Positions 11,301 to 50,547 of a DNA stretch of 64,000 bases are shown piece by piece. Within the stretch, counting starts at the first letter, position 1. Each line of letters opens with the position of its first letter. The DNA comes from Bilabrum cf. latius (taxonomy: Eukaryota). The translations under genes and the position numbers were made by a program. The notes beneath the pieces were generated by a model. It did not search any database, was not told where the DNA came from, and saw nothing but the letters and a program-made list of their open reading frames with translations. The stretch is taken from contig OZ237764.1 of the NCBI GenBank assembly GCA_965178125.1, forward strand, positions 372,001-436,000. The letters run 5' to 3'.

Positions 11301-11629
11301 ATGCTGGCTGAATGTGAATTCGTGTGAATCTCGATCGAAAGGTGCAGCCGGCGGCTTGCCCACCTGGTTGAGTGCCAGTTTCCAGACGGCGATGCATCGG
11401 TCAGCCATGCCAGGGTGAACTCTATGACTAGTGATCAACTAACGCATGGAAGATCTGAAGGCTTCCCAGGGTACGATGGGAAGGAGCTAGTCTTGCCTGC
11501 GACGGTAGATGTAGATTATATAGGCTTAGAATATCGTTGTCGAATCATTCGCATAATGCGTATCGGACACATGTATCGGGGCTCGCACCTGATGAACATT
11601 GTTTTCCAAAATGCAATCGCAGCCTGCAT
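8373..11629 (-). CDS. Unknown-family protein, tandem paralog 2 (~1054 aa; exons 11629-11589 and 11496-8373)
   Basis: One frame joins ORFs 10347-11438, 9996-10334 and 8373-9524 through TAGs and ends in TAA. Intron 11588-11497 is at the same position and phase as in the other two copies. Confidence 0.75.
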
Positions 11630-11861: not shown

Positions 11862-14800
11862 TCAGCCCCACGACTCGTCAGTGTCAGCGCGAGATTGTCC
11901 AGTCAGTGCTGCGCCACCGCCCGTCGCCTACCCTGCGATGCCACCCCCTTCGGCCTCTGCATGGCCCATTGCGACCTCGAGTACGGCTGCAGCTGCCTGG
12001 ACCAGTAGCACAGTGTGCAGGAGTCCCTGCTAGGAGTGAGACCCTGCCCCTGCCCCTGCACGTGCAGCTTCCTCCAGCATCGTATCGGTGAGTGCCTTGA
12101 TCTTACCGAGAGCTGCAGAAACAAGCGGACCGTCAAGGTGAGAAAGGGGCGGCAGCAGCAGCAGCTACGCGACATCAGGCTGCTATCCTGCAGACGCAGA
12201 CGATAGGGCAGTTCGGAAGTTCTCGTAGTCTCGCACGCTGATTGCGTCTATGTCTGGTGACGCAGTGGCACTCAGCCCGAGGCCAAGCATGAGCAGCCCG
12301 CTCCGAATGGATTCGATTGCCGGCTTGGTTACGCCATCGACGTACTTTTGCAGGTCCGTAAACCCAGCCGAGTCTCTAAGTCGGCTTGCTGCATTTGCTT
12401 GCAGAAGCAGTAGCACGTACCTGGTGTTCAGCGCACCGAGTCCTGCGTGCAGCTGGATGCCCGGCGACTTCGTCCGAGTAGTAGACAATACACTAGCAGC
12501 TGCGTCGGCTTGGTGCATGCTACCAAGGCCACTCCCCGGTCTACAGCTAGCTGGCTGTGTTGCTCCCACCGGCACAGCTAAGTCCTTGTTGCTAGGCCCG
12601 CCCAGGCCGGGAGTATTCTCAGTCTTGCCTAAGCCATCAATTTCGCTGACAATCGCCGAATCGTCCTTCTTTTCCCCTGCACTTGCATACCGTGCATCTG
12701 CACTTCCTGCTGCAGGGCCATCATGGCCATCCGCTGTTCCTGCATGCCGTGCATCTGCACTTCCTGCTGCAGGGCCATCATGGCCATCCGCTGTTCCTGC
12801 ATGCCGTGCATCTGCACTTCCTGCTGCAGGGCCATCATGGCCATCCGCTGCACCTGCATGCCGTGCATCTGCACTTCCTGCTGCAGGGCCATGATGGCCA
12901 TCCGCTGCACCTGCATGCCGTGCATCTGCACTTCCTGCTGCAGGGCCATCATGGCCATCCGCTGCAGGCGTTTTCGCCGATAGCTGTCTACTAGCCTGTG
13001 GGTCTTCTTGATGTTCGCTGTCCAACGCACTCTCATGTGCAAGGTCCACCATGCTGTCGTTGACGCAATGCAGCATGCGTATGGAGTACCTTCCTGCCAT
13101 CACAGCCCTGAATGCCTCGATCTGAGGTAGAGAATCAGCATCCAGTAATCTATCCAGGTTTGTGTGCGCCGTTACCATCATGGCAGCGGCCTGGTCAAGC
13201 AGCGTGCTCACGTTGCACTCTAACGGAGCAGCCACGCCCCCCTCTTGCACACTTTCACTTGGCTCCCCATCACCTGCGGCACTACAAGTGGCATCGCCTA
13301 AAGCAGTCTTTGCCGTAGCCATCGGCACCCTCTCGCACTCGGGCGCGTGCCCCTCTACGTCAAGCACACCACCACCCGAGGGCCACAGCATGGTGAGCTT
13401 GTCCCCGATCCACGAGCGTATCTTGCCTTCGGATTTGTCGTCACCGTAACGCGCCCAGTGCTTGCCGTGAGCAATTTGGGAAGCTGCCAAGGAAACGAGC
13501 GATTTGCAGTCGACGAACTATTCGCTTGTAATTGGCTGAAGCTTCGCGCTGCTGTGGCCCTGCTCGCCGTATCTGCTCCGTGCCTGCTCGCCGCCGTGCG
13601 CCATGGCCTCCTTTTCAGCCGAATCGACGGCATCCACAGGCAAGAGAAAATCACCAGCGGCAAACCGAAATCCACTGGGCGCATCTGTTTCCGGAGCCGA
13701 GCCTGCGCTGGCAGCAACAGACTAGCCCGCTGCAGTCGCCGCAGACTAGTCCTCTTCCATGCAAGCAATCTTATTCCTCGCTTCCGGTGCCACGATCCCC
13801 GCAGTCTCCAGATCCACGCATGCCAGCATCGACCTGCACGCGTGCTCCCATTCCTCCACGCGGTACCATGCTCGCATCAGCGGGTGGTGCGGGTCGACAG
13901 GCACGGATTTGCATGCCGGACTGCTGGGTTCTTTCTCCGCGGTTGCCTTGTCCATCCATCGGGACATTGGCCTGTCCATTGCGTGCACTAGGTGGGGGTT
14001 GTGCTCACCCGGCGAAAATCGAGCACGCACGTCGTCGAGATCAGCGTGGTACGAGGTCCATTCTTTGCTTGGAGGTTGACTGTTGGTCACCTAGAGTCTA
14101 GATTGGGACCAACCCTCCTCGCCGCTCGCTTGGAGTTCAGTGCTGACCTAGCTAAACAGAAAATTCTCCTTAGATTCACCCTTGTCCTAACACAAGACCA
14201 CCACTATTGAGTTGTTGGGGCGTCCGTTGGATAGCTGCAGCGCATAGCAGCCCATGTATTCCCCTGTTCGCTTGCTAGACTGCTGACAAGCACTCATGAT
14301 GTAGTTCCGGGCGATGATCTTATCTCCGTCCAGGGGATTCTTTGGGTCAATGGCCAGATAGGGGCCGTATCGAGCCTCTCGAACGGCAGGCACAATACCG
14401 TTAGATGCACGGTCGGGGTTCCTCGGCCTGCTGCATGAGAAAGCTCGCCTGTATAGGCCTTGGATCGGCAGCGGGAACTGCCGCTGGGCCAGACAGGGCC
14501 AATTCTCGACAGCACCTGCCGATACAGATGCATCTATTGCCGTCTCCTGCCCGGGCTATGGGAATGCGTCAGACAGTTCTTGGCAGATACCGGAGCGCAG
14601 TTTTTTGACTGCCTCACTCATCCGGTCAGTCCACTTGGGGACTTCTGCCTTAGGACTCGCTTCGGCGCTTTCGTCGCCCTGAGTACCGTAGGTATACACG
14701 TCGTTGTCCTACCGTTCGAAGTACAGCAGCCCCTCCGGCAGTCCAGACCTAGCAGGGTTCAGGCGCAGCTTCTTGTGCGTGATCGGAGAAGGGCTCGGCG

Positions 14801-15969
14801 GGGATGCGGCACCCGCGGCCCCCGCGTCAGTCGCTGACCGTGCACCTCCGGTCGCGGCGCCACTCCCACCTTCAGCTGCTCTCTCGACGCCATGGGTCGG
14901 CGCCTCCTCGTGTTCTAAAGCGTGCCGAAGAGCCAGGATGTGTTCATCCCACACCTTCCTCCAGGCCTCTGCCACCGGCAGTTGCTGGTCGGTGCGACCA
15001 CTTTTCCCATCCGAGCTGAGACTGCCTGAGCTGAGTGATGATCCCGACTGACTGCCGGCTGGCGCTTGGCCGCCTTCTTTCTTAGCAGATCGGTACCGTG
15101 ATCGAGTATGTTTCTCTGCTGATGGCGGCTACTTTGCTGGGATCAGTTCATCGGTGCGCGGCCCCGCGGTGATTGCCCCCCTCGGCATCCATGTGCCCGG
15201 CCACAGCTGGATGGGGGCGGGCTTGCCTGTCGTTTCAAGCGTCCCGTCCGGCTTTTCGCTCCGTGCCTCCGCGTCAAGTAGCAATCCTGACACGGCCACG
15301 ACCGGGGGCAGATACCTAAACACGTTCCCGCCCGGGGGGCGGTTCCAGTCCGCGGCTGGCGCGGAGTGGCTCAGGATCAGCCCGCCATTGTGCTCCCACG
15401 GGCACAGGCGCAGCAGCCACGTCCCCGGCTTGTGCACAATGCCCAGCAGCAAGTCCGCCGCAGGACGGGTCTGCATGCCCTAGAAGCAGTTGAATGCCAC
15501 GTCCAGGGCCAGCAGCCGGAAGGAAGCCTCCATCACGCAGAGTTTCCAAGAGTTGGGATCATCCTTGTTCCATAGGTCGTTCACGTTCATGCACATCATG
15601 ACGCCAAGCAGATCGAGGAAGAGGACATCTCTGGTGGAGCAATGCTGGCTGAATGTGAATTCGGGCGAATCTTCAAGTTGATCGAAAGGTGCAGCTGGCG
15701 GCTTGCCCACCTGGTTGAGTGCCAGTTTCCAGACGGCGATGCATCGGCCAGCCACACCATCAGATACTCCCGACTCAATGAGAAGATCCTTTACAGCTGA
15801 GCTAAAAATTTTCCACGGCAATCTGGGAAGGAGCTGATTTTGACTGCGATCCAAACAAGTATGGCAAGATCATAATGCATTATGAGGGCTGCGTCACTTT
15901 CTTCTACGGCGCCGTTATGCACCCTTACTCTGCAAACATGGACTTCCATGCTTCAACTGCTGCTATCAT
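11862..15969 (-). CDS. Unknown-family protein, tandem paralog 3 (~1340 aa; exons 15969-15929 and 15843-11862)
   Basis: One frame joins ORFs 15480, 15129, 14709, 14187, 13746 and 12183 through TAGs and ends in TGA at 11862. Intron 15928-15844. Confidence 0.75.
12685..12966. repeat. 57-bp coding minisatellite x~5 (19-aa unit ADGHDGPAAGSADARHAG[AT])
   Basis: Near-perfect head-to-tail repeats of gcatctgcacttcctgctgcagggccatcatggccatccgctg..cctgcatgccgt within paralog 3. Confidence 0.9.
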
Positions 15970-19474: not shown

Positions 19475-22400
19475 TCACTGCCCCCCCTGTTTCTCAAAGG
19501 CAGCGCGATACAAATGGGCCGGAATCGCCTGCACGCCGGCCGCGTCCCCGAACATGGGCAGCCGCTGGGACCTCGCCTGCGCCCTCTGCCTCGCCACCAT
19601 GGAGGACCGAGGCGACAGCTGCATGTCGCCCTCCGCCACCACCTTCTTGACGCCGCCCGTCACGCGCATGCTCGCCAAAAATTCGCTGGCCTCGTCGTTG
19701 CTCGGCTTGATCCTCAAACTAGACGTCACAGGGGCCTCCACCGCCACTTTGACCAGCCCGCCTTTGCTCACCTGGCTACCGCTGCCCTGGCTGCCAGTGC
19801 CCGAAGAAGCCTGCCTGCCGCGGCCCCTGTGACGATCAGGCCCCGACCAGTTGGGCGGCTTGGCGCTGCCAGTGGTCGAGTCCCACCCCACGGACTTGAG
19901 GTCGTCCGTCATGCCGTGGCTGGTGTTGGACTGCCTGTGACCGTGCTTGGTGTGGCCCATGGTGCTCTCCCCGTGGCTGGCCTGCCCGTTCCCTTGCCCC
20001 GTGCCCTTGGATTTCACAAAGTACCGCGTGCCTGCGTCGCCGGTATGATTCCCGGATGCTGCCCCAGCGTGGGCCGAGGTGGATTTCCGGAGCGTATTCT
20101 TCAGATTGTCGATGTCGTCCAGCGAATCCTGCCTCTTAAAGGGGACATGGCTGCTGCTACCATCCTCCACCTGCCCGCCGCTCCTGCCAGCCATCTCCTT
20201 GCTCCTGCCAGTTGGCATCTTGCCCAGCTCCAGCCCGCTGCCCACGGCCCGGAGCACCCCAGCTGAGTCCCTTACCGCACCGCCACCGCCACCGCCACCG
20301 CCACCGCCACCTCCTCCGACCTCAGAGTTGCCCGCCGTCCACACCTGCTGGGCCCCCTCATCGTCAGACCCCACAGTGGCATGAGCTAGCCCTACTGCCC
20401 CGCCCTGGCTGCTCGCCTCCTGCCCGTTCTTGCCCTCCCCCTCCTCGTCCTCGTTCTCAGACTCCACCAGCTCGTCGTGCTCCTCGCCCTGCTTGGTGTA
20501 GACCAGCTCGTCCTTCTTCTCCTGCAGCACCTCGTTGATCTCCTGCTGCGTGAAGTACGTACGCTCCGAGCGATGCCTCACCAAGGACTTCCGCCTATTC
20601 ATCCCCTTCTTCTTCTCAACCCTCTTGCCGTTAGACGCACGGGAACCGGCGCGGTGGATGCTGCTCCTCTTCCTGCCGATCGCAGCCCCGCTCTCATCCA
20701 CACCCACGGCCTGCAATGCAGCCTTGACCGCATTCATGACGTGCGCCTGCAGCTGCTCCTGGGTCATGCCAGGCGCACCGGCGGGGAACATGCTGGTCGA
20801 GCTGCTGCCCATTGATGCAGCAGACCGCTCCGACCTAGCGTCCTGGTTGAGGCCACCCGCCCCAACGCTCCTGCTTTGGCCCTCCCACCTGCCACTCGCT
20901 TCTGTGGTGGCTCGCCTGTCTTCAGACGTGGGCAGCAGCACGCCCTTGTCCGCCGAGTCGGGGCCTATGGGGAGACCCGGCCGTTCGTGCACCCCGGTTG
21001 GATCGCCCATCGATTGGGGCGCGCCGCCCATGAGTGCCGCGCTGCTGGTGGCAGGCAGGATCGCAGCGGAGGCGGATGCGACTGCCGATGCGACCTTGGC
21101 GATGTCTTCTTGCGACATGCGTCTGCCACCGTGCTTCTTCCTCCTCCTCATCGTTGAGCCGCTGGTCACGGTTCGGCCGTCGGTCCCGCCCCCCGTCGCA
21201 CTGCCTGTACCGTTGTCATTGTCGTCGTCGTCGTCGCTGTCTCTATCGAACTCGTCGTCTTCCTCAATGGACTGACCATCATCGTCAAGCGGGGTGATCT
21301 CGGTGAGCCGGACGAGCACGTGGTTGTGCTCCGCTTCATCCAGCCCCCTCTTCTCCTCGTCTTCTGTGACACGCACGGGGATGCACAGCCCCGTGGTGAG
21401 GATGCCAAGAGCGCAGGAGAGACCGCCTATCAGAGCCACCGCGCAGCACGTCGCCAGCTGCACGCCGAACTGCCGCAGCCCGCCTCCGTGGAAGAGGCCA
21501 GGGGTCGACGCGTCCGTCCCGTAGATGTAATCGTTGCCCGGCAGCGTGTGATCGTTCGCGAACAGCCCGACCATGAGCATCCCCATGATCCCGTTGACGA
21601 AGTGGCATGGCAGCGCTGCTACGGGGTCGTCGATCCGGAACCAGACGAAGAGATGCCCAGAGAGCATTCCGATGACGGACCCAATCACTCCGATGATGGC
21701 AGCCTCCCACGGCTGGATGCTCGCACAGGGCGCAGTGACGCAGACCAGCGCCGAGATGACCCCAGTGACAATTTCGTTCGTATCAACGTAGGCCGGGTGC
21801 TGTATCTAAGACCAGATAATGGAGACGATGCAGCCGGTACCGCTGGCAATTGCAGTGTTCACGCCAGCCAGACCGGCCGTGACCTCGGCCCCGTTGGCAA
21901 TGGACCCTGTGGAGGAGGCGTCAAACGCTACCCAGGCGATGACTAGGAGAATGCAGCCAAAAATCGTGTTCAGTGGGCTAGACCTCGTGGGGAAGTACCT
22001 GCCTGAAGGGCTAAAGACACCTGTGCGGGGGCCGAGCATGATCGTCCCCACGAGACCAGCAGAGCCGCCGCACAGATGCACCGCCGCTGAGCCCGCGAAA
22101 TCGATCACTCCGAGCTCCCCGGCCCAGCCGTCTGTTCCCCAGATCCAGTGGGCGGCAAGGGGGTACGCCAGGCAAATGATCCACAGAGAGAGCACAACGT
22201 AGGCCCTGAAACCCGTCCTTCCCGCCACGGCACCGCTCAGAATCGTTGTTGACGTGGATGCAAACGACCACGACCAAATCCACGCCATGAAGTCCGTGTA
22301 TGGTGGCAGCAGCAAGAAGTCGCCCTCCCCCGTGATTGGATTTGCTCCACCAGCATCGTTCGTGCCGAACGCGAGCCCCCACCCAATCACATAGAATCCA

Positions 22401-23089
22401 AATGCGCCTACGCACATATCGCTCAAGTTCTGCGGTATCGCGGACGGGCCGGGTACGAAGAAAGACTCTGTTGGCGTACAACGGCTCGTTGCTCGAGGAA
22501 TCCGATCGTTCGAAACTGGGCATTCCGCGGAATCAGTCATGCCAGCTTACCTTTGTTATGATACTGATTGAGCTAGATGAGCTGACTGCTCCAGCTTCCA
22601 GCCTGCGAACGTGGGATGGTTATGCGTGATGTGGAGCGAACTAGAGTGCGACAGGAAAGCCGAATCAGTTGCGACAATAGCTGCCCTACTCATATGATGC
22701 CACGTACAAACAAATACACACGATAAAATCCGACTATGCTACGGCTGAAAAACAAAACGAACCCTGCACTGAGGCTGTTGCAGTCGTAGTCTGCGCACGA
22801 ACTGGTTTCCTACTTACATGGCAAAGCCTGCTTGCATTGTGAGAATTATCAAGGCATTTGAGAACAACCACGCCCCGTCTGCAGCAGCTTGATTCGCTTC
22901 TGTCGCCATCTCAAGGGCAAGGACTCTTGATTCCAGCTCCTGAAGAGACATTGTCACGTTTACTGCCTGCAAGGTCCTACCTCTCAAAAGCGCTACAGTG
23001 GCGGTCGAAACACCAGCGGACTCTGTGAATTGCATTAAACTAGTAAGTAGTACAATCATACACGCCGGGGCGGAGAGGATGCTCCACAT
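19475..23089 (-). CDS. AMT: Ammonium transporter (Amt/Mep) with long C-terminal tail; exons 23089-22818, 22602-22551, 22429-19475
   Basis: Splicing restores MQAGFAMLEAG. Other motifs: TILSGAVAGR, YPLAAHWIWG..GW, DFAGSAAVHLCGG and DDPVAALPCH (both pore His residues present). One in-frame TAG at 21806. Ends in TGA. Confidence 0.92.
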
Positions 23090-23253: not shown

Positions 23254-26200
23254 TCATTCCGTCTTCTAGTGATCTCCACTCTCTTCGTCTTCCTCTTCCT
23301 CACCTTCCTCGTCCCCATCCTCGTCCTCCTCCTCATCGTCGCTGTCCAAGTCGTCGTCCTCATCGATCGCCTGGTCGTCACGGTCCGCCTGCCCGATGCC
23401 CAAGCCAGCCATGAGATCCAGCCCAGGGTCCAACCTTCCCTCCTGCATGTCTCTACGGAACTTGCGGTCTGCGGCGCTCAGCCCGGCCACGCCCAAGCTG
23501 CCGCGGGGCAACACCGGCACCACGAGCCTGACCCTGAAGTCCAGCCCCCTGTACGCCTTGCTCTTGAACACCAGCCACAGGGACAAAGGGTGCGGCTGCA
23601 GCTCACCCTCCAGCACGTCTGCTCCGAACCTCGCCCGCACCGACTCATCGTACACCTCGGGAAGCATGATCTGCAGACTCTCCCTCTGGTACCGATGCAC
23701 CTGGTCCACCTCAAGAGCGGTTGTGCGGCCCCTGTTCGTGGTGAGGACCATGGCGTTGTCGCTGTCGTCCAGCACCTGCAGCACCCACCCCGCCCCGGCC
23801 TTGCCAGGGAACAAAGGAGCGTGCGCCTTCTGCACGGGCTCCTTGGTGGCACGCAGGGCCCAGCCCTTCTCGGCCTCGCGCTCCATGAGTGCCTGCCTTC
23901 GCTTGACGTTTCGCACGAAAATGTCCTCCTCCTCCTCGTCCTCCTTCTCATTCGACTCGCCTGCCCCCGGGTTGACCTTGCCCCCTTCCCCTTCCTCGGC
24001 TCCCGCCGCCCCTGCCGCGCCGCCCGCCCCCGCCCCCACGCCCTTGGCGTCCTGCTCCTCCAGTGCCTCCTGCTTCCTGGTCGCAAATCCAGCTTCGGCC
24101 TCCAGCCATGCCCGCTTCGCTTCGGCGTTCCAGTCCTCCACCCGATCCTCCTTCTCCTGCACCCACGCGGCCACCTCCTCCTTGCTCATGGCGTTGAGGT
24201 GCACCATCCTCACGTCGATGTGCAGCAGCTCCTGCTCGGTGAAGGTTCCTTCCTGGTTCGCTCCGCCCCTGGCGTGCGCCAGCACGTCCAGCAGCGGCAG
24301 GGCCTGCGCCACCTTGGTTGTATCCGTGTAAGCCGCCTCAAGGTCCATGGATTTGCCCGCCTCGGTGTCTTTTGCCACCGACTGGTCCACCATGGCACAG
24401 ATGCCCGCCAGCTGCGTGTCGTCCACCGACCCCACGGGCCTGATGTCCTTCAGAAGCAAAGGTCGCAGGACGTTCGAGACCTTGCGCTGGGACTTCGCGT
24501 CCGGGAGGTCCAGGGAACACAGCTTGCTGAGCTCGCGCTCCTGCACCACGGCGGGCTCGCCCTCCAGCACGCCCACCGCGGCCCTGCCCTTGAGCCCCGC
24601 AGCTGTCAGCGGCACTGCCAGCCGGGAGGGGCGCGCCTTGTCCACTGCCCTCTGCTGCTCCTCCGTCAGCGCCTGCCCCTCTCCAGGGAACACGCCGGCC
24701 AGGTACCGCGCCAGCAGCTCCTCCTCGCCTATCTGCAGGGCCTGCGACAGGGGCTCAAGGGAGTACTTCGGGCTTGAGCCTTTCTTTGTGAGCGCGGTCG
24801 CGTCTTCCCACAGCACGGGGATCTGCACGATGGGATGCTGCCTGGGCAGGATCGCCTGGCAGATGCACTGCGCCAGCTCGGATGCGCACAGCGCGGCATC
24901 CACGTGCTGGGGGCGGGTGGTTCTGAATTCCATGGGGGACGGCGTGGGCTTCTCGTGGCAAGTGCCCCTGCCGATCACGACGCTATCGCGATGGGCGGCA
25001 GGTCCGCTCCTCTGCACCTCGTCGCTGCGAAGCAAGGGCCCCACCTTGGCGAGCTGCCTGTACCCGTCAAAGTTCAGAAGGCGGGCGAACTTCAGGGCCT
25101 GCACGCCGACCCGCGGAAGGTACGGCCTGAGGTTCATGGCGTTTGCGTCGAGCATCTTCGCCAGGGCTGCCCTCTGCTTGAGCACCTGCTCAAGTTCTTC
25201 GATCTTCTGCTTGTCCTTGGGCATCTTCTTGGGCCTCTCGACGTGCTTCTCGAAGGAGCTGTGGTTCCGTCTGGCCAGGTACTCCCAGAGAACAAGGGAG
25301 TTGATGAGCCCCAGCCCATGCTTGAGGTGGTGAAATGGCTGATTCGGGGGGAAGTTGGGGGGCAGGTATTGCCTCGGGTGGTAGTACGGGAGGTTGACGG
25401 CATCCGGTGCGCCCAGGCACTTGAACTCTGGGGACTTTGCCGCGCTCTTTGCGATCTCCATGACCACTTTCTCGACCTGTGGGTAGGAACCCTTGAACAT
25501 CTGTTCCCACTGGAGCTCTGCCACGCACGCGCAGGCGGGCACGAGGGTGTCTTGGGTGACTGGCCCGCTGGTGCGGTGCATGATCATCATCTGGGACCAG
25601 CGGTTGGTGACCCGCATCTTGATCTCTGGCATGTTGTTCTTCCGGGTAAAGTACATGAGGACAGGCACGCCCACGGCAAAGGCGGCCAGGTAGCTGATCA
25701 GGAGGATGTACTGGCCCGTGATGTTTGCCAGCCAGGGGGGGAGACCCACGCCCACCTCAAGGGCCTGGCGCCCGTCGGGGTTTCCGTACAGGCGGTAGTT
25801 CTCCTTGGCGGTTTCATCTGTGAGGGTTTCGTATGCCTTTGCGATTTTCAGGAACATTTCGTCGTCCCCGTTGCGCTTGTCTGGATGGTACACGATCGAC
25901 ATCTTGCGGTAGGCCTTTTTGATTTCGCGCTCCGTGGCGGTCGATTCGAGCCCCAGAACCTGCGATAAACATACAATGTACGTACTCAGACAGGTCGACT
26001 GGGGAAGTGTGGGTCTTCATTCGAAGCACCAAGCAAAAAGTTGCAACGTGTTGCTTTCCTCACTGTGAAAGGGTTGTACTGCTCAACTTCACCGTGGAGG
26101 ACGACCTAAAAGATGGAAACTACTAGCAAAATGGCAACAATGCCCATGACAGCGACATGGATGGAAAATGCCGTGGTCCAGAGGGGCTTCGGCCCCTTGA

Positions 26201-26483
26201 TTCCTTGCTTTTCCATGCGCTTGCGTTCCTCTGTTGTTCTAGCCTGCAGGGCAAGTATGGCCGGTAAAACGCGACTTGAAGAGTACTTGATGCGCAATGT
26301 GGCTGTCCTTTGCCGCATGATTCCTTTAAACGAGACATTTAGACTCACAGTTGCCAGCGGATCCACAGAGCGTCTTCGAAGGTACATGAATGTGTACAAC
26401 CCAGCCAATCCCAGGTACAAAGAGCATATCATAAGCATGAAGTACGACGCAGCCGAGTCGTCATACTGCAAAGTGGCCACCAT
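23254..26483 (-). CDS. SEC63: SEC63 translocon J-domain protein, paralog A (introns ~26348-26246 and 26063-25960)
   Basis: N-terminus LQYDDSAASYF, TM helices, J-domain (YNPFTVLG...IKKAYRKMSIVYHPDK...YGNPDGRQALEVGVGLPPWL), HAPLFP and acidic tail. TAGs at 26106 and 23266. The true stop is TGA at 23254. Confidence 0.88.
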
Positions 26484-26644: not shown

Positions 26645-28363
26645 ATGCAAAGCTCCACCCCGCTTGAGCTTCGCTAGCTATCTTCCCCTGTTGCACACTA
26701 GCTTGTCCCTGTTGCTACTGCAACTAGCGCGGCCCGTGCAACTGGACCAGGTCAGAAAGACAGAAAGGAAGAAAAACATGACAATATTATTGTTGAGGAA
26801 TAGTCCTACGGACAGTTGCTTCGCACGGCAATCGAAAAGGCGTATTTTAGCGACAGCCAGAATTCGGCACCAAGTAGCATCGATGCTGAAATACATGGTA
26901 GGATAACGGAGGACGATGCGAGTATGATAAAGAATAAGCGTAAGCGAAAACAAACTCATCGATCAAACTATTGGTGGCTGGTGCCGGGAGAAGCCGGCAA
27001 GCTGCACAGGAGGCTGCAGGTGGCCAAGACGGATGAGATGCGGCTGGCGATCCAAGCCGCAGAGCGAGCAAAGGAACTTGAGTGGGAGAAAAGGGCGGAA
27101 CGATAGGCGCTGCTGGATTTAAATGACTCAGAAGGCTCAGGGCACGTGCGGATGCTGTAGCCGGGGCAGCCTCCACTCATGCTCACCGACGGTGCCAACG
27201 CCAGTGGTGTAGGCACCAGCTCGGGCATTGAACGGACGTCGCAGGCGCTGGTCGAGTCCTCGAGCTAGCTTGTGGAGCAACGTTCTCACCCTGCCAAACA
27301 CGAAGAAGACCCAAAGAACCCTCTCTTTTTCCCGGCCCGGCACCTGGCCCGTGCAGGGCCCGAGGCAGGCGCAGCGGCGGCCGCAGCTGCTCGGGTGCAC
27401 GCCTCGAAGCGGCCCGTTGCAGACAGCGCGGGGAAACTAGTGCTCCGATCGAATGCCTCGTTTCCACAGGCGGAGAAAGGATTGCTCGAAAAAACAGAGG
27501 GGGGCGAGCACGAGCACGGCGACGGAGCACTTGCTCGGGGGTCTGCGGGGAGGCGCCGCAAAGGACAGGTAGGAGAACTCACGTCTGGCCTAGCGCGGCG
27601 GTCGGATGGTCGCAAGTACTCCTACCTGAAAACACCCACGCCCTACGGTGGCGATTCCGCAGGCGCGGGATCGATTCCCGGTGTAGATGGTGCGCTGCGG
27701 GCTCCCCCCATGACCTTCGGCCTCGTACTGGGAATGCCCCGGGCTGTTCCCCCGGTGCTGCCTTCGCACGCGGCGCTTTGGAGCCGGGAAGGTTCCGCTT
27801 CAGGTGCAGGTGCAGGTGCAGGTGCAGGTGCATTGCACGGAAGCACAGAACCATGTTTGTCATCTTTGGCATCATCATCATCCTCATCCTCATCCTCATC
27901 CTCCACTCCGAGTGGTACCATGGGCCCGCCCCCTCCTCCTGCCGTCCTTCCCCCACCCGCACCCCGAGTGGGCCCGTCTGCAGGCACAGGCACGCTTGCA
28001 TTCGCTTCGGGGGCGACACCGCTGGGAGCCTACAGGGCGAGGACTGGGACGCCGGGAGCGATGGCGGGCTGGGCGAGCACTCGAGCAAGTGCTCGGGGCG
28101 GTATTGACGCGCAGGAGGAGGTGGCAGGCAGGGCCCTTGGAATGGGAAGGGTTGAAGCGTCATCGTCGACGTTGCTGCCCCGTCAAGGTGCCAGTGGGAG
28201 GCCAAGGGGAGGCCCGTATGCGTCCGGGTCGCGCAAGCATGGGGTTGGTGGCATCCGGCGGGCACCCACTCCGCTGCAGCGAGCGGCTGCAGGTCGTAGC
28301 CCTGCCGCGCAGCTCCTCGCGGCTCGGCTAGGCGGCAAGAAGGCCGCCATGCGAAGGAAGTAA
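26645..28363 (+). CDS. ESS2: Splicing factor ESS-2/DGCR14 (Es2) homolog (~572 aa)
   Basis: Es2 blocks appear in order: IVEE*SYGQLLRTAIEKAYF, ITEDDAS, KNPLFFP, YSYLKTPTP, PPMTFG and SPAAQLL. Six in-frame TAGs lie in the 5' part. Ends in TAA. Confidence 0.75.
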
Positions 28364-28431
28364 TGCAATATTCGGAGCCGAAAGCAGGAAACACGTTGTG
28401 CGCAGCATGCTCTAGACTAGAACAGTAAATC

Positions 28432-31400
28432 ATGGCATAGCTTTCAGAATCGTCCGTATTTACACTTGTAGTATGTGCGCTGTACACCATTGCTGCGGGT
28501 TGGTGGACGTGGACTGTGGTGCGCCGCGGACAGATAGAGCCGTACAAAATCGTAAGAATACCCAACCGTTCGCTCCAGCAGTCGGCTTAATGAACTGGAC
28601 AGCAACGTAATACTAACATCCATGTTCTATCTCGTGCAGGTTCGTTCGCGCGATGAGAAACGAGCCATCGGAAAATACCGAGTGTAGTCACTGTGGACGC
28701 TAGCATTCACTTTGAACGTTGTCGTTCTCGGAGCTGTGGTCATGTGCATGTTCGTTTCTGGTGCGGATATCATCGCTGCTGAGGTCTAGATGCCGTTCGA
28801 CCCTTACGCGGTAAGACATACTGCTGCTGCTGCCTGTTCCCAAAACAGGCCGCCGCCGGTGCTGTTTCACGGCAGCCGCTCCACTGCTGATGCCCCCCCC
28901 TCGCGTCGTACGACCGTGTTTCGCAGATCCTTGGAGTCGAAAAAGACGCCACGAACCGCCAAATCAAGCGAGCTTACCGGAAATTGGCAGTGTCTCACCA
29001 CCCCGACAAGACAGCAGGCGATAAGGCCCTGCAGGACGCCTTCATCCAGATCTCGAAGGCATACGCCGCGCTCACAGATCCCGAAGCCAAGCGAAACATG
29101 ATGCTGTATGGACACCCCGACGGCCGCCAGACGTTTTTCACTGGCATTGGCCTCCCCAGCTGGATCGAGCACTAGAACAGCCAGGCAGTGATCCTCGTCC
29201 TATACGCTCTTATCCTCGCCGTGGCAATCCCAGTCATGATATACAGGTCCAGAGGATCACCGAACCAATCAGGCCGCAGAGAGCGCAGGCGCAGTCCCCA
29301 GCAGGAGCAGGCCCGCGGCATCGCAGTGTCCCAGTGGCTCGCCGATGGGGCCCGGAGAGCTGCTTCCTAGTCGTGAGGCGTAACCACATTAATGGTACGG
29401 TTTGATTGGACGTGAACGTGGACTTGAATGTGAATGGGATTGGGTTGCAGGCTAGGCGCTTATCCTGCGATGTGCGTGGTTTGTTGGATGGGTTCTATCA
29501 TGCTCGTCCTCTTAGTCTTCAAGTCAATACTTGCCATTTGCTCCCGTTCTCCTCCAGTTTAGAGCCTTTTCAACTTGGTTTTTGTTTGGTTGTTACAAGC
29601 CCCCTACTGTATGTCGCAGGCTCATGGTGGGCACAGTTGGTGGCTGCCAGATTATCGAGACGCCTTGGGAGGCGCAGGCGGGGCAACGGGGCAGCGGCAT
29701 GGCGAGGAGGAGGCTGGCTGCACTGGCGCAAGGGATCGCCGTGGCGGAGGGTGCGCTCGTCACACGGTACGGTGCCTGCGCCGAAGCGTTCCTGCGGGAC
29801 AGCAGGGTGGGCAACGGCGGCGCCATGGATGGCGTGGGCGGCGAGTCGCAGACCGAGGTGGAGGTCGCACTGTCTTCAAGGGCAAACGCACTGGTGCTGT
29901 GGCTGCACCTGGCAAGGCTTTGCGACTGCACCGCGGATTTGGGTGCCGACGGGAAACAGCCCAAGGCGGGCAGCGCAGGCGACGGGCTTCGCGTCGTGCT
30001 TGAAGCGCTTGAGGGCTTCAAGGAGGCGCCAGGCAAAGACGAATAGAAGAACAAGAAGGACGAGGACGAGGAAGACGCCCAGAACGCTCAGGCCAGGAAA
30101 GAGGCAGCCAATGCCATGATCGAGCACCTGCAGGGCATTGCAGTGGAGGGCCCGGCGTGGGCACTCCGGGGCTGCAAATTCCAGAGGATGATCGCGATGG
30201 GCGGCACGAGCAGCAGCGAGGCATCGAGCCTGAGCCCCTTCGAGGACGAGGACGATCTAGCGCAAGGCGGCGACGGCGGCGCGGCTGCTCTGGCTGGTGA
30301 CCCTTCCACCGAAAGTTCCACCGATTCAGGCAAGCAAGGCGGCAAGAAGCAGCCCAAGAAGAAATCAAGAGGCAAGCGCGGCGGCAAAGGCGGTGCAAAG
30401 ACGGCTGGGGGAGACAGTGGCGGCGCGCAGCGCCGCGGCAACAGGGGCGGCGGATCTGTGGCAGCTGGGCTCGGTGCCACGAATTTGCCCAAGGCAGGCG
30501 GCGGTAGGGGCGAAGCGATCCAGAACGTGGATGCCGCGCTGTGCGCATCCGAGCTGGCGCAGTGCATCTGCTAGGCGATCCTGCCCAGGCAGCATCCCAT
30601 CATGCAGATCCCCGGTGTATTGGTGCCGTCTACGGAGCTGCTGGTTTCTGGTGGCGCTGACTCAGAAGCAAGCACGAGCAATAGAATGAAGCCGCTGCTG
30701 AACGTCCTGTCGCAGGCCCTGCAGATAGGCGAGGAGGAGCTGCTGGCGCGGTTCCTGGCCGGCGTGTTCCCCGGAAAGGGGCAGGCGCTGACGGAGGAGC
30801 AGCAGAGGGCAGTGGACAAGGCGCGCCCCTCCCGGCTGGCAGTGCCGCTGACAGCTGCGGGGCTCAAGGGCAGGGCCGCGGTGGGCGTGCTGGAGGGCGA
30901 GCCCGCCGTGGTGCAGGAGCGCGAGCTCAGCAAGCTGTGTTCCCTGGACCTGTCCGGTGCCATCACGCAGCGGAGGGCGGCCGGAGTGCTTCGCATGCTG
31001 CTCCTGCAGGAAGCTTAGCCCGAGGGCGAAACGTGCGCCGCACTATCAGCAAAGTCCTTTGCCACTGCAAGCGCGTGGTAGGCTGCGGTTGGATGTGATG
31101 ACGACAGCGGCGCTCCGGGAGGGGCAGCAAAGCAGCGGCTAGAGGAGGCCATCTCGGTCGCTCGCTGGATGCCGCTGGCAGACACCTTCGTGCGCTGCAG
31201 TCCCGTGCACCGTGGCGAGGGAATATTTGGCGAGGGTGACCTGGTGAGAGTGTAGGTCACTCTGGCGCACCTCAATGCGATGCACCGAGGGGAAGTGGCT
31301 GCGTGGGTGCAGGAGAAGCAGGATCGGGTGGAGGCTCTTGCAGGACTGGCCAAAGTGGCATGGGCAGAGCACGAGTTGCGCGTGGAGGATGGAAACAGCG

Positions 31401-31981
31401 ATGAGGAGGAAGAAGAAGAATCGAGCGGCGGCGAATATGGCGACGAGGGCGAAGAGGGGGAGGAAGAGACCATGTCAAGACAGGAACAGCTGGCCCGCAA
31501 GGCTCTGGACCAGTGGATCAGGCAGGAAAAGCCGCCCAGGGAGCAGGCCGTGAAACCCGCGGGCCAGTTCGGATCTGGTGACATGGGGACCGCCTTTGCC
31601 CAGCCGGCCGCTTTGGCCAGGTGCTTCCAGGAGCCCATGCCACTGGCTCACTCACCTCTGTACCCTGGCCGAGCCGGTGCGGGGTGGGTGGTGCAAGTGC
31701 TAGACCAGGACGACAGGGCCATCCCCCTGATCCTCAAGGATAACTACATGGGATACAACGCTTCGATCGACTCGCCCACCGTGTTGTCCGACCTGAAGTT
31801 CGGCATGTAGATTCCTCTGGCTTTCGAGACGTTCAGATCCGGACGGTGCAGCCAGGTTGACCCGTTGCAGCCGCACCCTTTGTCCCTGTGGCTGGTGTTC
31901 AAGAGCAAGGCGTACAGGGGGCTGGACTTCAGAGTCAGGCTCGTGGTGCCGGTGTTGCCGGATGGCAGTCGGGGCCTGTGA
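28432..31981 (+). CDS. SEC63: SEC63-like J-domain protein, paralog B (introns 28552-28639, 28811-28926, 29373-29619)
   Basis: J-domain FDPYAILG...IKRAYRKLAVSHHPDK...YGHPDGRQ..GIGLPSW. The first two introns match paralog A in position. More than 10 in-frame TAGs, including codon 3. Ends in TGA. Confidence 0.8.
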
Positions 31982-32186
31982 GGGTAGTCTACTGGATCTG
32001 CCAATGGAGCGGCTGGCCTGGCCCATTAAGTCGTCTTCGGTGGGCACTGCAAGGTGTGCTAGGCCAAAGTGGGCTGGGCCTAGGCACTGCTGTGCGTTTC
32101 TGGGCCGATGGACCAGCATGCACATCCTTGGGGCATACATGATTCGAAATTTGAGATAACGAATAGTTCAGGGTGCAGCATGTGTG

Positions 32187-33518
32187 TTAGGTGGCGGGCG
32201 GCGTGCATTGATGCGGCTGCACTGCACTGCCGCTGCCGCTCGCCGACTCAAAAGTGCAGGGCAGCGGGTACTACACCGTGGCGTTGAAGCCGGTCACGTT
32301 AAAATCCTCCAGCACGATCCCTTCGCACGTATTGTCCGCCGAGCACTTGAAGCGCCCCACCTGTCTCGGGCACACGGCCCCCGCCCCCCTGCACGACGTG
32401 GAGGGCACCGGGCCCAGGTACCCAGACAGGCCACGCACGGTCACATTCCCGACCGAGACCGACCGCAATCTGGACAGACCGCTGGTATGCATCGAAAGAT
32501 TCTAGATGCCTTCGAGATAGAGAGAGTCATGACCCGCGCCATTCTCGCCTCTGCTATACCCGGGCGTCATTGCGTGGTCCGTCTGCAGATCAAGATCCAT
32601 CGCGTACACTGCCGGGTCCTACACTACGATGTCCTCGAACAGGATGTCGCGCACGGTCCCTGTCTAGGTTGGCCTGAACTTGATGCGGACTCCGGCCAGG
32701 GAGCCAATCGCGGTGCAGTTTCGAAAGGTCACGTTGCGCATGGAATTGCCGTCGCTGGTGCCTAGGACCAGCCCGCCCGCCAGCCCAGGGTAGTAGTTCG
32801 TGCCCGGGTACTGCCGGCCGTTCCGAACGGTGCAGCCCTCCACCAGCACGTCGCTTGCTTGCGATTTCATGCAGATGCTATCGTCACCGTTAGTCACCGT
32901 AGTGTTCCGGATGAGTCCGCCAATGCACCCGAAGTCTACACCGTCGGTGTTTGCAACGGCATAGTTCGACACGTTCACGGAATCGATCACAATGTTTGAA
33001 CATGGCGGATTGAACACCATCGTCATCGCAGCGCTGTTTCTCAGCGTGATCCCTCGGATGGTCACGTTGCTCACGCTCTCCGAGTGAATGAGCCTTGGCC
33101 TGGTCGACAAGCCAGGCAACTGCCACCAGCTTGGCCCGCCACCATCGATAGCGCCTTGCCCCACAATCGCGATATCCCTCTTGTGTCGCAGCTCTATAAA
33201 GTCAAACATGGTGGAGTTTGGCCATTTTGAAATGTCCTTGCTGGCGGAAAGAGTGGATCCAAGCGGTAGATGAATTGACGTCCCATTCGGAAGGTCGAGA
33301 GGATATGCAATACAGTTCAGACCACCCGGAAACAACACATCTGAATGATACGCACATGCGTATAGTGCTTTCTAAATTGCGGCGGTATCGTCCGTATGCC
33401 CATCGCACTTGGCCCCAAAACGTTCGATGCTGCAACTGCTCGTCTACGCCTTGATTACATTCACCATGATTGTGAGCGTAGTTAGCACAACGAGCGCATA
33501 TATACCATACTATGACAT
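32187..33518 (-). CDS. Secreted glycoside hydrolase family 28 (polygalacturonase-like, ~443 aa)
   Basis: Signal peptide, FGAKCDGHTDDTAAI*KA, GQGAIDGGG..WW, RPRL, NTDG, GDDSI and RIK. Seven in-frame TAGs. Ends in TAA. Intronless. Confidence 0.88.
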
Positions 33519-34061
33519 CAGAGGGGACCCCATGGTTCCGTTTATGGGTCTACAACCGCCAATAAAATCGAGTTTTGTGTTTGTTGAGTTCGGCCACGGG
33601 CGCTGCGCATTCACTTCGAGCAGGTTCCGCATGCGATTGCCGGATCGTGGGTGGTACAACTCACCATGGCGGGGAAGCGTGACTTTCTCGTTCGGGTGGC
33701 GACGATCATTGGTAACAAGCGCATAACTCTGGGAGATAGCGCGACGATACAGCATCTACGATAGCGTGTGATCGACGCGTTCGAAATATAGGAGTGTAGG
33801 GCGAGTGACGTCCATTTGTCCTCAGCACCAAGAGCTTTGACTGCCGCTTACAGCAAATCTAATGATGATTTTGGTAGCAATGATGACGCGGTGGCTACGA
33901 AATGCAAGCGTGGGCACTAGATATACGCGTAGCTGCCACCACGGGCAATTGGCTCACCGAGAACACCGCCCAAGCCCACTCGAACATCGAGATCTAGCGC
34001 ATCTACTGGCACGAAGGCCTCATTTCGTAGCTAGTAGGATGACGCAAGGGAGCGCCGCGTG

Positions 34062-43042: not shown

Positions 43043-43305
43043 CCGGCTGCATGATATCGGTGACATCATTAAGTGGACTAGTCTACAGCATTGGAAGATT
43101 TCCCAAAAGCTGATGCACCGCTATTCTGTAGAACGTTCGCCTGCTTCCACGCTTGACTTGCAGCAGCGCCAGCAACAGCGTTGTGCAGCTTGATGAGGCA
43201 TCACTGGCTGGGGCATTTCAGGCACTTGTCAGCCAGAGGGCGGGCGAGGTCGCCGTTGCGACCGCCACGGTTCGGTTCGGTCGCCCGAAAGAGCAGCGAT
43301 AAAGC

Positions 43306-46300
43306 ATGGTGACCTTTTCTACCTGCGTATTCATGTCAACCAATTTAGTATTATCAGCTTGTGCGGCAGTGGCTGTTGCTTATGGCTCCCCCTGTCCCCC
43401 AGAAAACCAGGTCGGCTAGGGGGTCGGAGCATTGCAAGTACCAGGTTTTGGAGCCGACAGTACCGAGTATACGCTCCGTCCGTTTCTAAGCTTTGTTCAA
43501 GAACGACATGGATAGTAGTTGTAGGCATCTCAGGACTGGAAGGAGTATTTGAGCCCAGCTCACAACCCGCTTCCGCCGGCTCCTGCAATTGCAATCACGG
43601 CGCAATCTGAGGTGTCTGTTTGTGCTGGTACACGCGCCGCACGGATGACATGGTAGTGGTCAAGTGATAATTAGTCTGTCTTGGCCGCTTTGTACGTGTT
43701 CAAAGAGCCTGGAAAGCTCCAATCTGGGAACGTCAGCGTCGGATAGTTTGCCCTTGATATTACGCTCCTGAATTGGGCACGAAGCGCGGATGCCGCCGCC
43801 ACAGAGAGGAATGCGAGTGGTAATTTCCTGGAGGTGGCGGTCGGTATCTCGATGCCGTGGTCAACGAACTATACTTCGTTTGACTTCGATGGTAGGGCAG
43901 CCATCGTATCCGCATGGGATCAAGTACGGAGCAGCACACACGGAGACATCAGCATGAACGACATGAATTTTCTGAATAATGCGTCCCAGTATGCTATTGA
44001 GAACGGCTGCAGCGCTTGCGAGGCCGGAAACACCGGCACGGAGGACCAGTACCCGCTCAGGTGCTTCGCTCAGGGCACCGACAACAACTACCAGTCGAGG
44101 CACGTTCTACTGGTCCGCTTTCCCGGCGCAAGGACGTAGAATTTCCTGCAGTATGACATGTGCGGGACGTACAGCCACTTGGTGCCGTCTCCGTCTCCGT
44201 CTCCGTCTCCGAGACCCTCGCCCACTCCCAGTGCCAGTGCCAGTGCCAGTGCCAGTGCCAGTGCCAGTGCCAGTGCCAGTGCCACCCCCGCTTCGGAGCC
44301 TCTGGTATCCGACCCGCCCGCATGCCACGGCCCCGCGACCATTCCAACCAGGTTCACCATGTGGGGGGAGGGCGTCCCCGGCACGCCCGATGACACGTGG
44401 TTGCCTGGGGGCAAGGTTGGCATAGCGGTGGCGAACGCGGGGGACGTCGACGGGTCCGGGACCGACGACCTGCTGGTAACTGAGTGGGACTCGCACAGGG
44501 TCTGGCTGGCCTTCACCAGCTCCTCCGGAAACATGTCCGTTGAGCGGTTGGTTCACGTTGCGCCGGACGACACAACGGGGACGGTGTTCAGCGGGGCTCA
44601 GTTCGGGCAGGCCCTCGCCGGGTTGGGTGCACTGCAAGGTAGCGCGGGCCTCACCACCATCGCCATCGGAGCTCCCAACTTCTTGGCCCAGGGCGCTGGA
44701 ACCACCCGCGGTGCAGTCGCGCTCGTCACACTGAATACCCACGGCAGTCTTGTGGATTATACACTAATTGCCTAGGGCAGGCAGGGCTTCCATGGGCTGG
44801 TCGGGTCTCAGTACCAGCAGCCCGACTTTGGCCGGTCGATGGCTTCCATTCCGACGAACTCGGCTGGTGTCGGCGCGGGCGATCAGCGTCTAGAGTCCCT
44901 CGGCTGCTCTGTGGATTGCCGAGCGGTGCTTGCAGTCGGTGCCCGCCGATTCAATGCAGTGGAGCGAACAGAGCGCGGTGCAGTGTTTGTGCTGTCTTTG
45001 AACGCGACTGGGTTTGTGCTGCACACCATCCAGGTGAGCCAAGCTATGCCAGGCGGATCTAGGCTGCTGCTTCCACTGCCTGCCACCGAAGGGGGCCTTA
45101 ACTTCGGTAACTAGTTGGCTTGGCTCGAGGATGGAAATGGAGACGAAGTCCCGGAGCTTGCAGTCTCCTTCAAGACTGCTTCCGACGGCAATACGCACCA
45201 GGTGGCTGTCCTGTTCTCCAATGCATCGGCCAGCAGCGAAGTGTCTGGCTCTCCGGCGGGTGAACCGATCGGTGGGGCAGGTGTGATTGTCGTTAACAGC
45301 TCGACACTGCCTGAGCTTGAAGTCTCCGGCTAGACTTCGCGTTATTTCGCTAGCTCGATGGCAAGCATTCCTGACCCTGGCGGTTGCGCGGGTGGGCTTG
45401 GCTTGCTGGTAGGGCAGTGGGGGCGTAATTCGGAACGGGGCGCAGTATGGGTCATCAGCCTAAACGCGATTACCATGGGCGTTTCTAACGCGACCGAGGT
45501 GGGCACGTCGTGCTGCCTAGATGAGGGGGGCGCGCCACTGACGGGCTTTGAGCAGGGGCAGGCCGCACGGCTGGGCACAGCGCTCGCAACGGGCAACTTC
45601 AGTGGTGGCGATATGCTGAGCATCGCTGTGGGTGCCACTGACTTTTAGAATCCTGGCAATGATTACTCTGGTGCCATCGTCATGTGGGAAACGGGCAGAG
45701 CGATCCTGCCGGGTGCACCCGATGCACCGTGCGACGAGGATCGGGCTCTGCATGTGCCCGTCTCCTTCCGATTGCTATCGCCCGGAGTCGATCCGATGCT
45801 TGGCGACGTCGGTTTCGATTCGCGGCTTGGGAGGGCTGTAGCTACTGCTGGTGATGTGGATGGATCCGGGACAGACGATCTGCTCGCGTCTGACATGTCC
45901 AGGAGGATGGTCTGGTTGCTGTTCACGAACGCGTCCGGAGACGGCTCGCTGGTCGGTTCCGTCAATTTGGGTGGAGCTGAGGGTAGTCAGGTGGGTATTC
46001 GAGGGTCGGTCAACACCGCGTTTGGATCTGCAGTGGCGGGGCTCGGCAAGCTCGGGGGTCATGACAGCAGCACGGTCGTGGCCATTGGGGCGCAGAGGCA
46101 TACCCCACTACACAGCTCTCAGCGAGGCGGGGTCGTGTTGCTGTGGGTGTCTACCAACGGGACAGTGCAGTCATATTCTTTGATTGAGCAGGGATCAAAT
46201 GGTTTTAGTGGCCTGTCAACCTCACCCGACTCAGAGACGCACTTTGGGAGCGCGCTGGCAGCCCTACCGCGGGATGGCTCTGCCGGCGTGCCAGGGGGCG

Positions 46301-49300: not shown

Positions 49301-50547
49301 CCTCGAGCGTCGTGACGACTGCGTTTGCCCTTGAGGTCCGTCTGGCGATGCAGCGCGCTGATTCAGTGACCTAGTCGTCAAGCCAAGACTCGTGGGACAC
49401 CGGCTGGATTGCTTCTGTGCTCACGGCTGCAGCTCAAAGTGGCAGTGGTGCCCCATCAGATGTGGCAGATGCCTTGCAAAACAGCATCGCAACATCACTG
49501 GACAACGCCACCGCGCTTGAGGCGGGGTAGTAGGAGCTTGCGCGAAGCTTGAGCCATTCTGGACTGGGGACTTTGGATGCATCGTTTTCTTAGGGAGGCG
49601 GGTCGTCTCGCGGTTTTATATCCGACACGTCGATGGGTTGGCAGGTCCTCTCACCGGATGGCGCCGTGTACGTGCCCCCAGGTGAGAACGAATATGGCAG
49701 CACAAGTCAGGACGATGAGGACGGGGTCGCGCCATTCGGCTTCTCCAATAGCAATGGATTGAGCGGGCATCAGTCTACTATTCTGACCGTGGTAGTGGGC
49801 GTGTTGAGTGCCGTGCTTGTCCTCGCTTTCATTGCCGGGCTCGTGGCGTACGCTCGGCATGTGGCGACTGGGGCAGACCACGAAGACGACGAAGATGAAC
49901 AAAATAAAAGCAGAAGGAGCACAGCGCAGGTGATGCCGATCGGATTTCCAGATGGGGTGCATGAGCTAGGGGCCAATGGGATGTACAGCGATGACGCGCG
50001 TTCAGGCTTTGGTGCGGACACGGCGGAGCAAGGCGAAGGAGCAGAGGAGGAGGAAGAGGTTACCATGGATGATGCGATCGGACCGCCTGAGGCACTTTCC
50101 AGTCACACGGGATCGCGGGCGGCAGGCCACGCCAGTCATGCACCCGATCAACTCAAGCAAGATGGCTTGACCGCTAAAGCCGGGAAATGCGGCTCCGCTC
50201 GGATGGCAAGACCTGTGACAGCGGTTGGGGCTGGTCTTGAAGCAAAAGAAAAGTTCGAATGCGCTACAACAGGCGGCAACTTAAGAGTAGGAAATGACGG
50301 GTAGGTTGGACCAGAAACGATGGCTTCGCTTTGGACGGGACATTTGGCACACGGCCTATAGAACGGGACGCGTGCGGAAGCTCAAAGTCTGGCGCGTGCC
50401 TTCGGTGCCGATTCCTCCAGGTCGCATGGCATGGCAGCGCACGGGGGCGACGACCCAAATGACACTGTTGACGAAGTGCACCGCATGGTGATGGAAGTAG
50501 CCACCGGCTTGGATGACCCTGAAGGCGAGGCAGACAGCCTGTAGTGA
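43306..50547 (+). CDS. Large single-pass surface protein with FG-GAP (integrin-alpha-like beta-propeller) repeats and mucin-like stalks (~2413 aa)
   Basis: Eleven track ORFs between 43834 and 50304 share one frame, with about 25 TAGs and no TAA/TGA. Signal peptide; repeated FG..AG.GDVDGSGTDDLL and GDLDLDG..AVGAP; S/T/P tracts; TM helix ILTVVVGVLSAVLVLAFIAGLVAYA. Ends CTG TAG TGA. Confidence 0.85.
44185..44283 (+). repeat. Coding hexamer microsatellites (ccgtct)n and (gccagt)n encoding a PSPSPS / ASASAS linker
   Basis: Perfect hexamer arrays visible in the sequence. Confidence 0.85.

Follow-up and report, generated by a model that had tools for sequence, protein, structure and literature searches.

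UAG is very probably an ordinary sense codon for glutamine in the GC-rich nuclear DNA of Bilabrum cf. latius, in which UGA (mostly) and UAA would terminate translation. We came to this reading through a stretch of 64,000 nucleotides (assembly GCA_965178125.1, contig OZ237764.1, positions 372,001 to 436,000 of the forward strand; hereafter the window, whose own numbering is used throughout), and particularly through two neighbouring paralogs encoding putative Sec63-like J-proteins: A on the minus strand and B on the plus strand. An earlier note on this DNA, made from the sequence alone, had observed that a TAG within B lies opposite a CAG within A in a tract of almost identical sequence, and had proposed that the two codons are synonymous. 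The evidence that bears on this proposal comes from the tract itself, from other sequencing runs, from homologous positions in relatives of three genes and from codon use across the window; the coordinates of the features concerned are given in the Table.

The sequence difference is read directly from the assembly. When B at 30525-30612 (plus strand) is set against the reverse complement of A at 24818-24905, the alignment is ungapped and identical in 86 of 88 columns, with the TAG of B at 30572-30574 opposite the CAG of A at 24858-24856, so that both the pairing and the earlier estimate of about two differences hold good. The first difference is the T of B against the C of A at 30572, and the second an A against a G at 30602, where B has ATG and A has GTG. 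Paralog A translates here as CASELAQCIC-Q-AILPRQHP, inside an open frame of 916 codons (23266-26016, minus strand). A repeat search places the site in a tract that we call I3, a 95-nt match at 97% that is far above chance and contains three differences (N/H, TAG/CAG and M/V), two of them nonsynonymous and one silent if TAG encodes glutamine. It was from this tract that the earlier note argued for synonymy, and here we depart from it, while retaining its conclusion on the grounds given below: because two of the three I3 differences alter the protein, the tract has not tolerated silent changes only, and by itself it is weak evidence for a silent TAG/CAG exchange. The argument is weakened further because CAG is the commonest one-step neighbour of TAG regardless of what TAG means.

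Glutamine is much the best-supported reading of TAG, as far as homologous sequences can tell, because Q is found at three TAG sites in orthologues of A and B and because two further TAGs fall in nearly invariant Gln columns of another gene of the window, belonging to family GH28. This GH28 gene (32187-33821, minus strand) has 69 homologs, of which 24 were aligned (the best 26 without P0020 and P0025, which are longer and multi-domain; 34-52% identity), and its TAGs at residues 150 and 386 occupy the columns in question. Orthologue fragments of A and B, called under the standard code and derived from close relatives, were collected in a full HMMER search with A, and at three homologous positions their Q is seen directly. 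Fragment P0219, which is B-type and 87% identical to B, has Q opposite TAG 30572; P0259, also B-type (92%), has Q opposite TAG 31808 and ends at the last residue of B; and P0217, which is A-type (93%), has Q opposite the TAG of A at 23268-23266, followed by the same three residues and then its end. It is these sites, with the two GH28 columns, that uphold the claim that CAG and TAG are synonymous. Comparison of paralogs within the window yielded 60 rows, eight with a flank identity of at least 0.6, and the sites that pass this filter show TAG opposite CAG three times, opposite TAG once (a shared column) and opposite GAG once.

Several observations tell against glutamine, and would suit a sense codon for another residue (Glu, Trp, Lys, Ser, Leu or Tyr) or an ambiguous decoding. 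The paralog site with GAG opposite TAG has flanks that are 100% identical. P0219 has R opposite TAG 31016, in an A-like tail; it is B-type at its head and A-type in its tail, past a second shared tract, I1 (compared with the window at 30950-31025), and this mosaic could reflect a conversion tract that is longer in that relative, or a chimeric contig or assembly. A more distant B-type relative, P0230 (51%), has R, V and E opposite TAGs 31016, 31079 and 31253 respectively. The other six of the eight GH28 TAGs lie in variable or gapped columns. The ammonium transporter gene (19475-22546, minus strand; 21 of 375 homolog matches aligned) has one TAG, whose column is variable: among 20 ungapped homologs 14 have W and none has Q, and the six closest homologs have V, I, Y, R, M and L. 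Codes in which UAG means Leu or Ser do exist in other eukaryotes, according to PMC11687900. Even so, we consider another residue or ambiguous decoding very improbable, since the two GH28 columns are almost wholly Q, close orthologues have Q at three TAG sites, the paralogs within the window have CAG at three of four informative sites, and the cases without Q, save the single GAG, occur in variable columns or beside weak flanks.

The ammonium transporter comprises the transporter domain (E 1.2e-74) and, after it, some 600 residues of low-complexity extension, and a 91% identical database fragment, P0098, starts 24 alignment columns past the TAG of the gene, as expected if a standard-code gene caller had restarted at the next Met. 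The GH63-like gene has no solved relatives by sequence, and its four TAGs stand outside the conserved domain; the NPL4-like gene has no TAG within its matched stretch.

The T at 30572 is found in DNA as well as RNA. A run search listed 14 sequencing runs, of which 11, from seven studies, hold at least part of B, and four of these (X1, X2, X6 and X7; one per study, from four studies) were compared with the window over 28400-32200. Runs X6 and X7 are classed as RNA solely by the absence of the three introns of B from their contigs; we take them as such because those introns are removed at GT..AG borders and the depth within intron 3 is zero. Three of the four runs, X1, X2 and X6, have T at 30572 with no other letter, where the earlier note had envisaged that reads might show C. 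A single contig of X1 spans the whole of 28400-32200 without a difference, and X2, from a different study, consists of unspliced DNA contigs and matches the B-specific piece 30542-30735 without a difference; the T is thus independently confirmed in DNA by X2. The same piece carries T, with no other letter, in the RNA of X6, so the codon is UAG in the messenger RNA (mRNA) and is unedited. The X6 RNA pieces cover all 11 TAGs of B with no other letters, and X7 covers 10 of the 11.

An assembly or sequencing error at 30572, or a U edited back to C in the RNA, is the most remote of the explanations that we have weighed. In its favour, the near-identical repeats of A and B might mislead an assembler, X1 is possibly the source of the window itself, which would make the two the same data, and the pieces listed for X7 leave 30559-30812, and hence 30572, uncovered. 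An error or an edit is nevertheless scarcely conceivable given a B-specific piece that carries T and no other letter in both DNA (X2) and RNA (X6), and ten further TAGs of the B mRNA that are likewise unaltered in the RNA contigs.

B is a full-length, expressed gene and not a dead copy. Its splicing is seen directly, as three GT..AG joints that both X6 and X7 show and neither X1 nor X2 does, and the spliced product is one frame across four exons, with 1033 codons and 11 TAGs but neither TGA nor TAA before the TGA at 31979-31981. At the off-frame codon rates of the window, the expectation for 1033 codons without TGA or TAA is approximately 1.6e-10, and for eleven stops that are every one TAG approximately 4e-7. 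Intron 3 contains two additional TAGs (29453 and 29513), which a plain scan for open reading frames miscounts as in-frame. B also appears to be old and retained, judging from the existence of a B-type fragment at 51% identity (P0230) and from the end of P0259, which coincides with the end residue of B.

Under the standard code, B would instead be a transcribed pseudogene and TAG 30572 a premature stop. Certain features of B are what such a copy might show: its low-complexity middle part (29621-30500) does not resemble A, no Pfam domain was found in exon 4, and dN/dS between A and B is about 0.67, a figure from saturated alignments that indicates no clear constraint. The transcript evidence also has gaps that count against an intact B, in that no single RNA contig covers all of it, the pieces ending at repeats common to A, and a listed X6 piece over 30706-30951 shows three variants of A (at 30753, 30772 and 30776). 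As these other letters are exactly the variants of A in tract I1, that contig is an A transcript placed on B, and A is expressed too. We regard a pseudogene as extremely unlikely because the spliced frame of 1033 codons accommodates 11 TAGs yet no TGA, TAA or frameshift, because the same pattern recurs in 14 of the 15 remaining long frames, because conserved B-type orthologues exist, at 87-92% and 51% identity, with the same end residue, and because TAGs stand on invariant Q columns of a different gene (GH28). The earlier note had allowed that B might be untranscribed and decaying; in X6 and X7 it is transcribed and spliced.

The window as a whole behaves in the same manner as B. Its 64 kb are approximately 60% GC and hold at least 16 long genes with few introns (those of B being 88-247 nt), among which an ammonium transporter, GH28, GH63-like, NPL4-like and AP-endonuclease-like genes and J-proteins A and B are recognisable. 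When TAG is read as sense, the longest frames grow from 1379, 916 and 776 codons to 2414, 2075 and 1611, while reading TAA as sense leaves the longest frames almost unchanged. Sixteen long, mostly non-overlapping frames contain 128 TAGs in 18,432 codons, TAG making up about 15% of their Gln-type codons, and they terminate at TGA in 13 cases and at TAA in three. If TAA were a sense codon used at the CAA:CAG ratio, about 40 in-frame TAAs would be expected in the 16 frames, and none is seen, as the construction of the frames dictates; TAA is not sense, because the frames would then be cut short, and they are not. Three ends were checked against homologs, and the stops there are observed directly: A ends at TGA, B at TGA and GH28 at TAA, each in agreement with the homolog ends. 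On the homology of these three ends, UAA and UGA appear still to terminate.

Two points at this scale weaken the case. The absence of in-frame TAA and TGA from the 16 frames follows from how the frames were defined, and a tRNA scan of the 64-kb window found no tRNA genes; an RNA family scan of the window likewise returned no Rfam matches. The codon-use data also leave some room for a dual, context-dependent TAG that is sense within genes and a stop at some ends. Dual codon meanings occur in some ciliates and in Blastocrithidia, for other codons. Because TAG counted as sense when the 16 ends were set, any TAG stop with a short run-on behind it would escape notice, and just three ends were compared with homologs. 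We hold a dual meaning to be most unlikely, however, given that TGA, TGA and TAA are the stops at the three checked ends, and that the TAG of A at 23268-23266 is read through, P0217 having Q there and the same three residues after it.

The history of A and B places the tract in context. The TAG of A just mentioned stands three codons before the TGA at 23256-23254, and the standard code would place the end of A there. Upstream of its main exon, a local alignment locates two hydrophobic segments resembling those of B exons 1 and 2, so that A (minus strand) and B (plus strand) would lie head to head, about 2 kb apart. Four inverted tracts link the two genes, namely I3 (95 nt, 97%), I1 (272 nt, 94%), I2 (113 nt, 92%) and I4 (118 nt, 71%), and inside I1 the segment 30797-30886 is identical at 90 of 90 nucleotides, silent sites included. 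Outside the tracts, A and B are saturated, with many 30-codon blocks at 37-49% nucleotide identity and dS >1, and the split between them is old, B-type and A-type forms being already distinct in the relative at 51% identity (P0230). Because near-identical patches thus sit within the saturated divergence of two anciently split types, we interpret the tracts as gene-conversion patches between inverted, divergently transcribed paralogs. The spacer between A and B contains a simple repeat of dinucleotide type at about 27750-27870, whose frames translate as HL, RM and VQ runs. Elsewhere in the window, three tandem paralogs on the minus strand (3300-8135, 8373-11525 and 11862-15869; 1611, 1050 and 1335 codons, with 20, 6 and 14 in-frame TAGs) match no Pfam family, and are nearly identical over an N-terminal part of about 200 residues and divergent beyond it; adjacent copies may have undergone conversion here as well.

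Sec63, the J-protein of the endoplasmic reticulum (ER) translocon, is the known protein to which A and B compare most naturally. The DnaJ domain (PF00226) is recognised in A (E 1.4e-17) and in exon 3 of B (E 1.3e-19), and in both it is placed after the second and before the third hydrophobic segment, which is the Sec63 order; the hydrophobic segments were identified by eye from the translations. A has an acidic C-terminal tail, as does Sec63, whereas B lacks an acidic end and has an internal acidic stretch instead. Twelve of 26 word-search matches have an architecture of PF02889 with PF00226, although the matches span 6-16% of A and are confined to the J-domain region. Unlike Sec63, neither A nor B matched the Sec63/Brl domain (PF02889) at E values up to 10. 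An AlphaFold model of the C-terminal half of A, built on an alignment of eight rows, had a mean pLDDT of 36.4 and was unusable for fold comparison, and a metagenome scan with A returned only a J-domain match (L001, 38% identical). Hence the SEC63 label of the earlier note is sound as regards the J domain, the three hydrophobic segments, the acidic tail of A and the Sec63 architecture of the best matches, and falters at the undetected Sec63/Brl domain; 'Sec63-like J-protein' seems a fair name, with membership of Sec63 not established.

Table. Positions, strands and supporting evidence for features of paralogs A and B and for the two informative GH28 codons, in window coordinates.
Feature	Position	Strand	Evidence
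In-frame TAG of paralog B	30572..30574	+	T seen in X1, X2 (DNA) and X6 (RNA); P0219 has Q
CAG (Gln) of paralog A, homologous position	24856..24858	-	Alignment to B
GH28 TAG, residue 150, nearly invariant Gln column	33372..33374	-	Q in 22/24, 2 gapped
GH28 TAG, residue 386, nearly invariant Gln column	32664..32666	-	Q in 23/24, A in 1
Tract I3 in B, 95 nt, 97% complementary to A, carries the TAG/CAG site	30520..30614	+	Repeat search
Tract I3 in A	24816..24910	-	Repeat search
Tract I1 in B, 272 nt, 94% to A 24480-24751	30706..30977	+	Repeat search
Tract I2 in B, 113 nt, 92% to A 23488-23600	31866..31978	+	Repeat search
B exon 1 as far as RNA contigs extend (first ATG 28432; TAG 28438), first hydrophobic segment	28427..28551	+	RNA contigs
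B intron 1, 88 nt, GT..AG	28552..28639	+	Joint in X6 and X7; absent from X1 and X2
B exon 2 (TAGs 28685, 28787), second hydrophobic segment	28640..28810	+	RNA contigs
B intron 2, 116 nt, GT..AG with the cut shifted one base right	28811..28926	+	RNA contigs
B exon 3 (TAGs 29173, 29368), DnaJ domain and third hydrophobic segment	28927..29372	+	Pfam PF00226, E 1.3e-19; RNA contigs
B intron 3, 247 nt, GT..AG	29373..29619	+	X6/X7 RNA depth 0 in bin 29416-29542
B exon 4 to TGA stop 31979-31981 (TAGs 30044, 30572, 31016, 31079, 31253, 31808)	29620..31981	+	RNA contigs; P0259 end matches
A main exon: DnaJ domain, long middle part, acidic tail	23254..26016	-	Open frame 23266-26016; TGA stop 23256-23254
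Probable upstream exon(s) of A, two hydrophobic segments resembling B exons 1-2	26061..26456	-	Local alignment score 99

Two other genes deserve mention in their own right. The GH28 gene is rhamnogalacturonase-like, and its best named relatives, at 40-49% identity, are from Diplonema papillatum and from EukProt transcriptome and single-cell assemblies, named bacterial and plant matches being far weaker; so patchy a distribution is a hint of gene transfer between protists. The longest frame of the window (43303-50547, plus strand) has 2414 codons with 25 TAGs, internal repeats, linkers rich in Ser, Pro and Thr, a hydrophobic segment near its end and a weak FG-GAP-like match (E 0.0038, below the cut-off of Pfam), and its product looks like a large surface protein.

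We would explain the TAG/CAG site as follows. A and B would be old, divergently transcribed, Sec63-like membrane J-protein paralogs, patches of which have been homogenised by conversion between the inverted copies, and within one such patch a single C/T transition would account for TAG in B and CAG in A. Because P0219, the B orthologue, has Q, and A has CAG, comparison of the sequences suggests that the change ran from CAG to TAG in B. With both codons meaning glutamine, the change would be silent, and B would stay full-length and expressed. Decoding would presumably involve a tRNA-Gln with anticodon CUA and an eRF1 that no longer recognises UAG, the mechanism described for other UAG-only codes in PMC5304391 and PMC11687900.

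There are practical consequences. In databases the relatives of A and B appear as pieces 110-302 residues long, which begin at internal methionines; standard-code gene calling splits such genes, and annotation, orthology and metagenome binning of the lineage need the right code. A silent TAG/CAG difference between two expressed paralogs would also constitute a natural control, the peptides of A and B over the codon being distinguishable.

Nuclear codes in which UAG and UAA differ in meaning are rare. Our literature search, which did not cover subscription journals and supplementary tables, found no report of UAG as glutamine in a GC-rich, non-ciliate eukaryote. We tentatively raise the possibility, which we would not yet call probable, that the window represents a further, independent and hitherto unreported origin of a nuclear code with UAG alone reassigned to glutamine, in a non-ciliate eukaryote that is GC-rich and intron-poor and uses UGA at the end of most of its genes. 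If this is true, UAG was reassigned in the absence of the AT-rich, UAA-dominated setting that marks the known cases, and a GC-rich organism stopping mostly at UGA would broaden the range of circumstances in which UAG can be captured.

Among known codes, the closest parallel is that of the fornicate Iotanema spirale (NCBI table 15 type), in which, according to PMC5304391, UAG alone has changed its meaning, to glutamine, and both UAA and UGA are stops. The window appears to share each of these properties, and differs in stop preference, UAA being the primary stop of I. spirale and the frames here ending at TGA in 13 of 16 cases and at TAA in three. The same source gives UAR as glutamine (NCBI table 6) for many ciliates, some ulvophytes, hexamitid diplomonads, oxymonads and Amoeboaphelidium protococcarum, with which the window has the reading of UAG in common. 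We considered table 6 as a candidate for the window and rejected it, because reading TAA as sense barely extends the frames and because TAA ends GH28 where its homologs end. Decoupled codes with another residue are described for the rhizarian exLh (UAG as Leu), one ciliate lineage (UAG as Leu) and the green alga Scotinosphaera (UAG as Ser); exLh and Scotinosphaera resemble the window in that UAG is reassigned alone, and differ in the residue, which conserved columns indicate to be Gln here. Lastly, UAG is also glutamine, with UAA retained, in two phyllopharyngean ciliate lineages and in Protocruzia tuzeti, according to PMC11687900. The codon change and the retention of UAA are the same, but those ciliates are described there as having 27.4-53.6% GC and UAA as the preferred stop, whereas the window is approximately 60% GC and stops mostly at TGA, and the one telomere-capped contig described there measures 12.5 kb, whereas the window is a 64-kb stretch of many genes.

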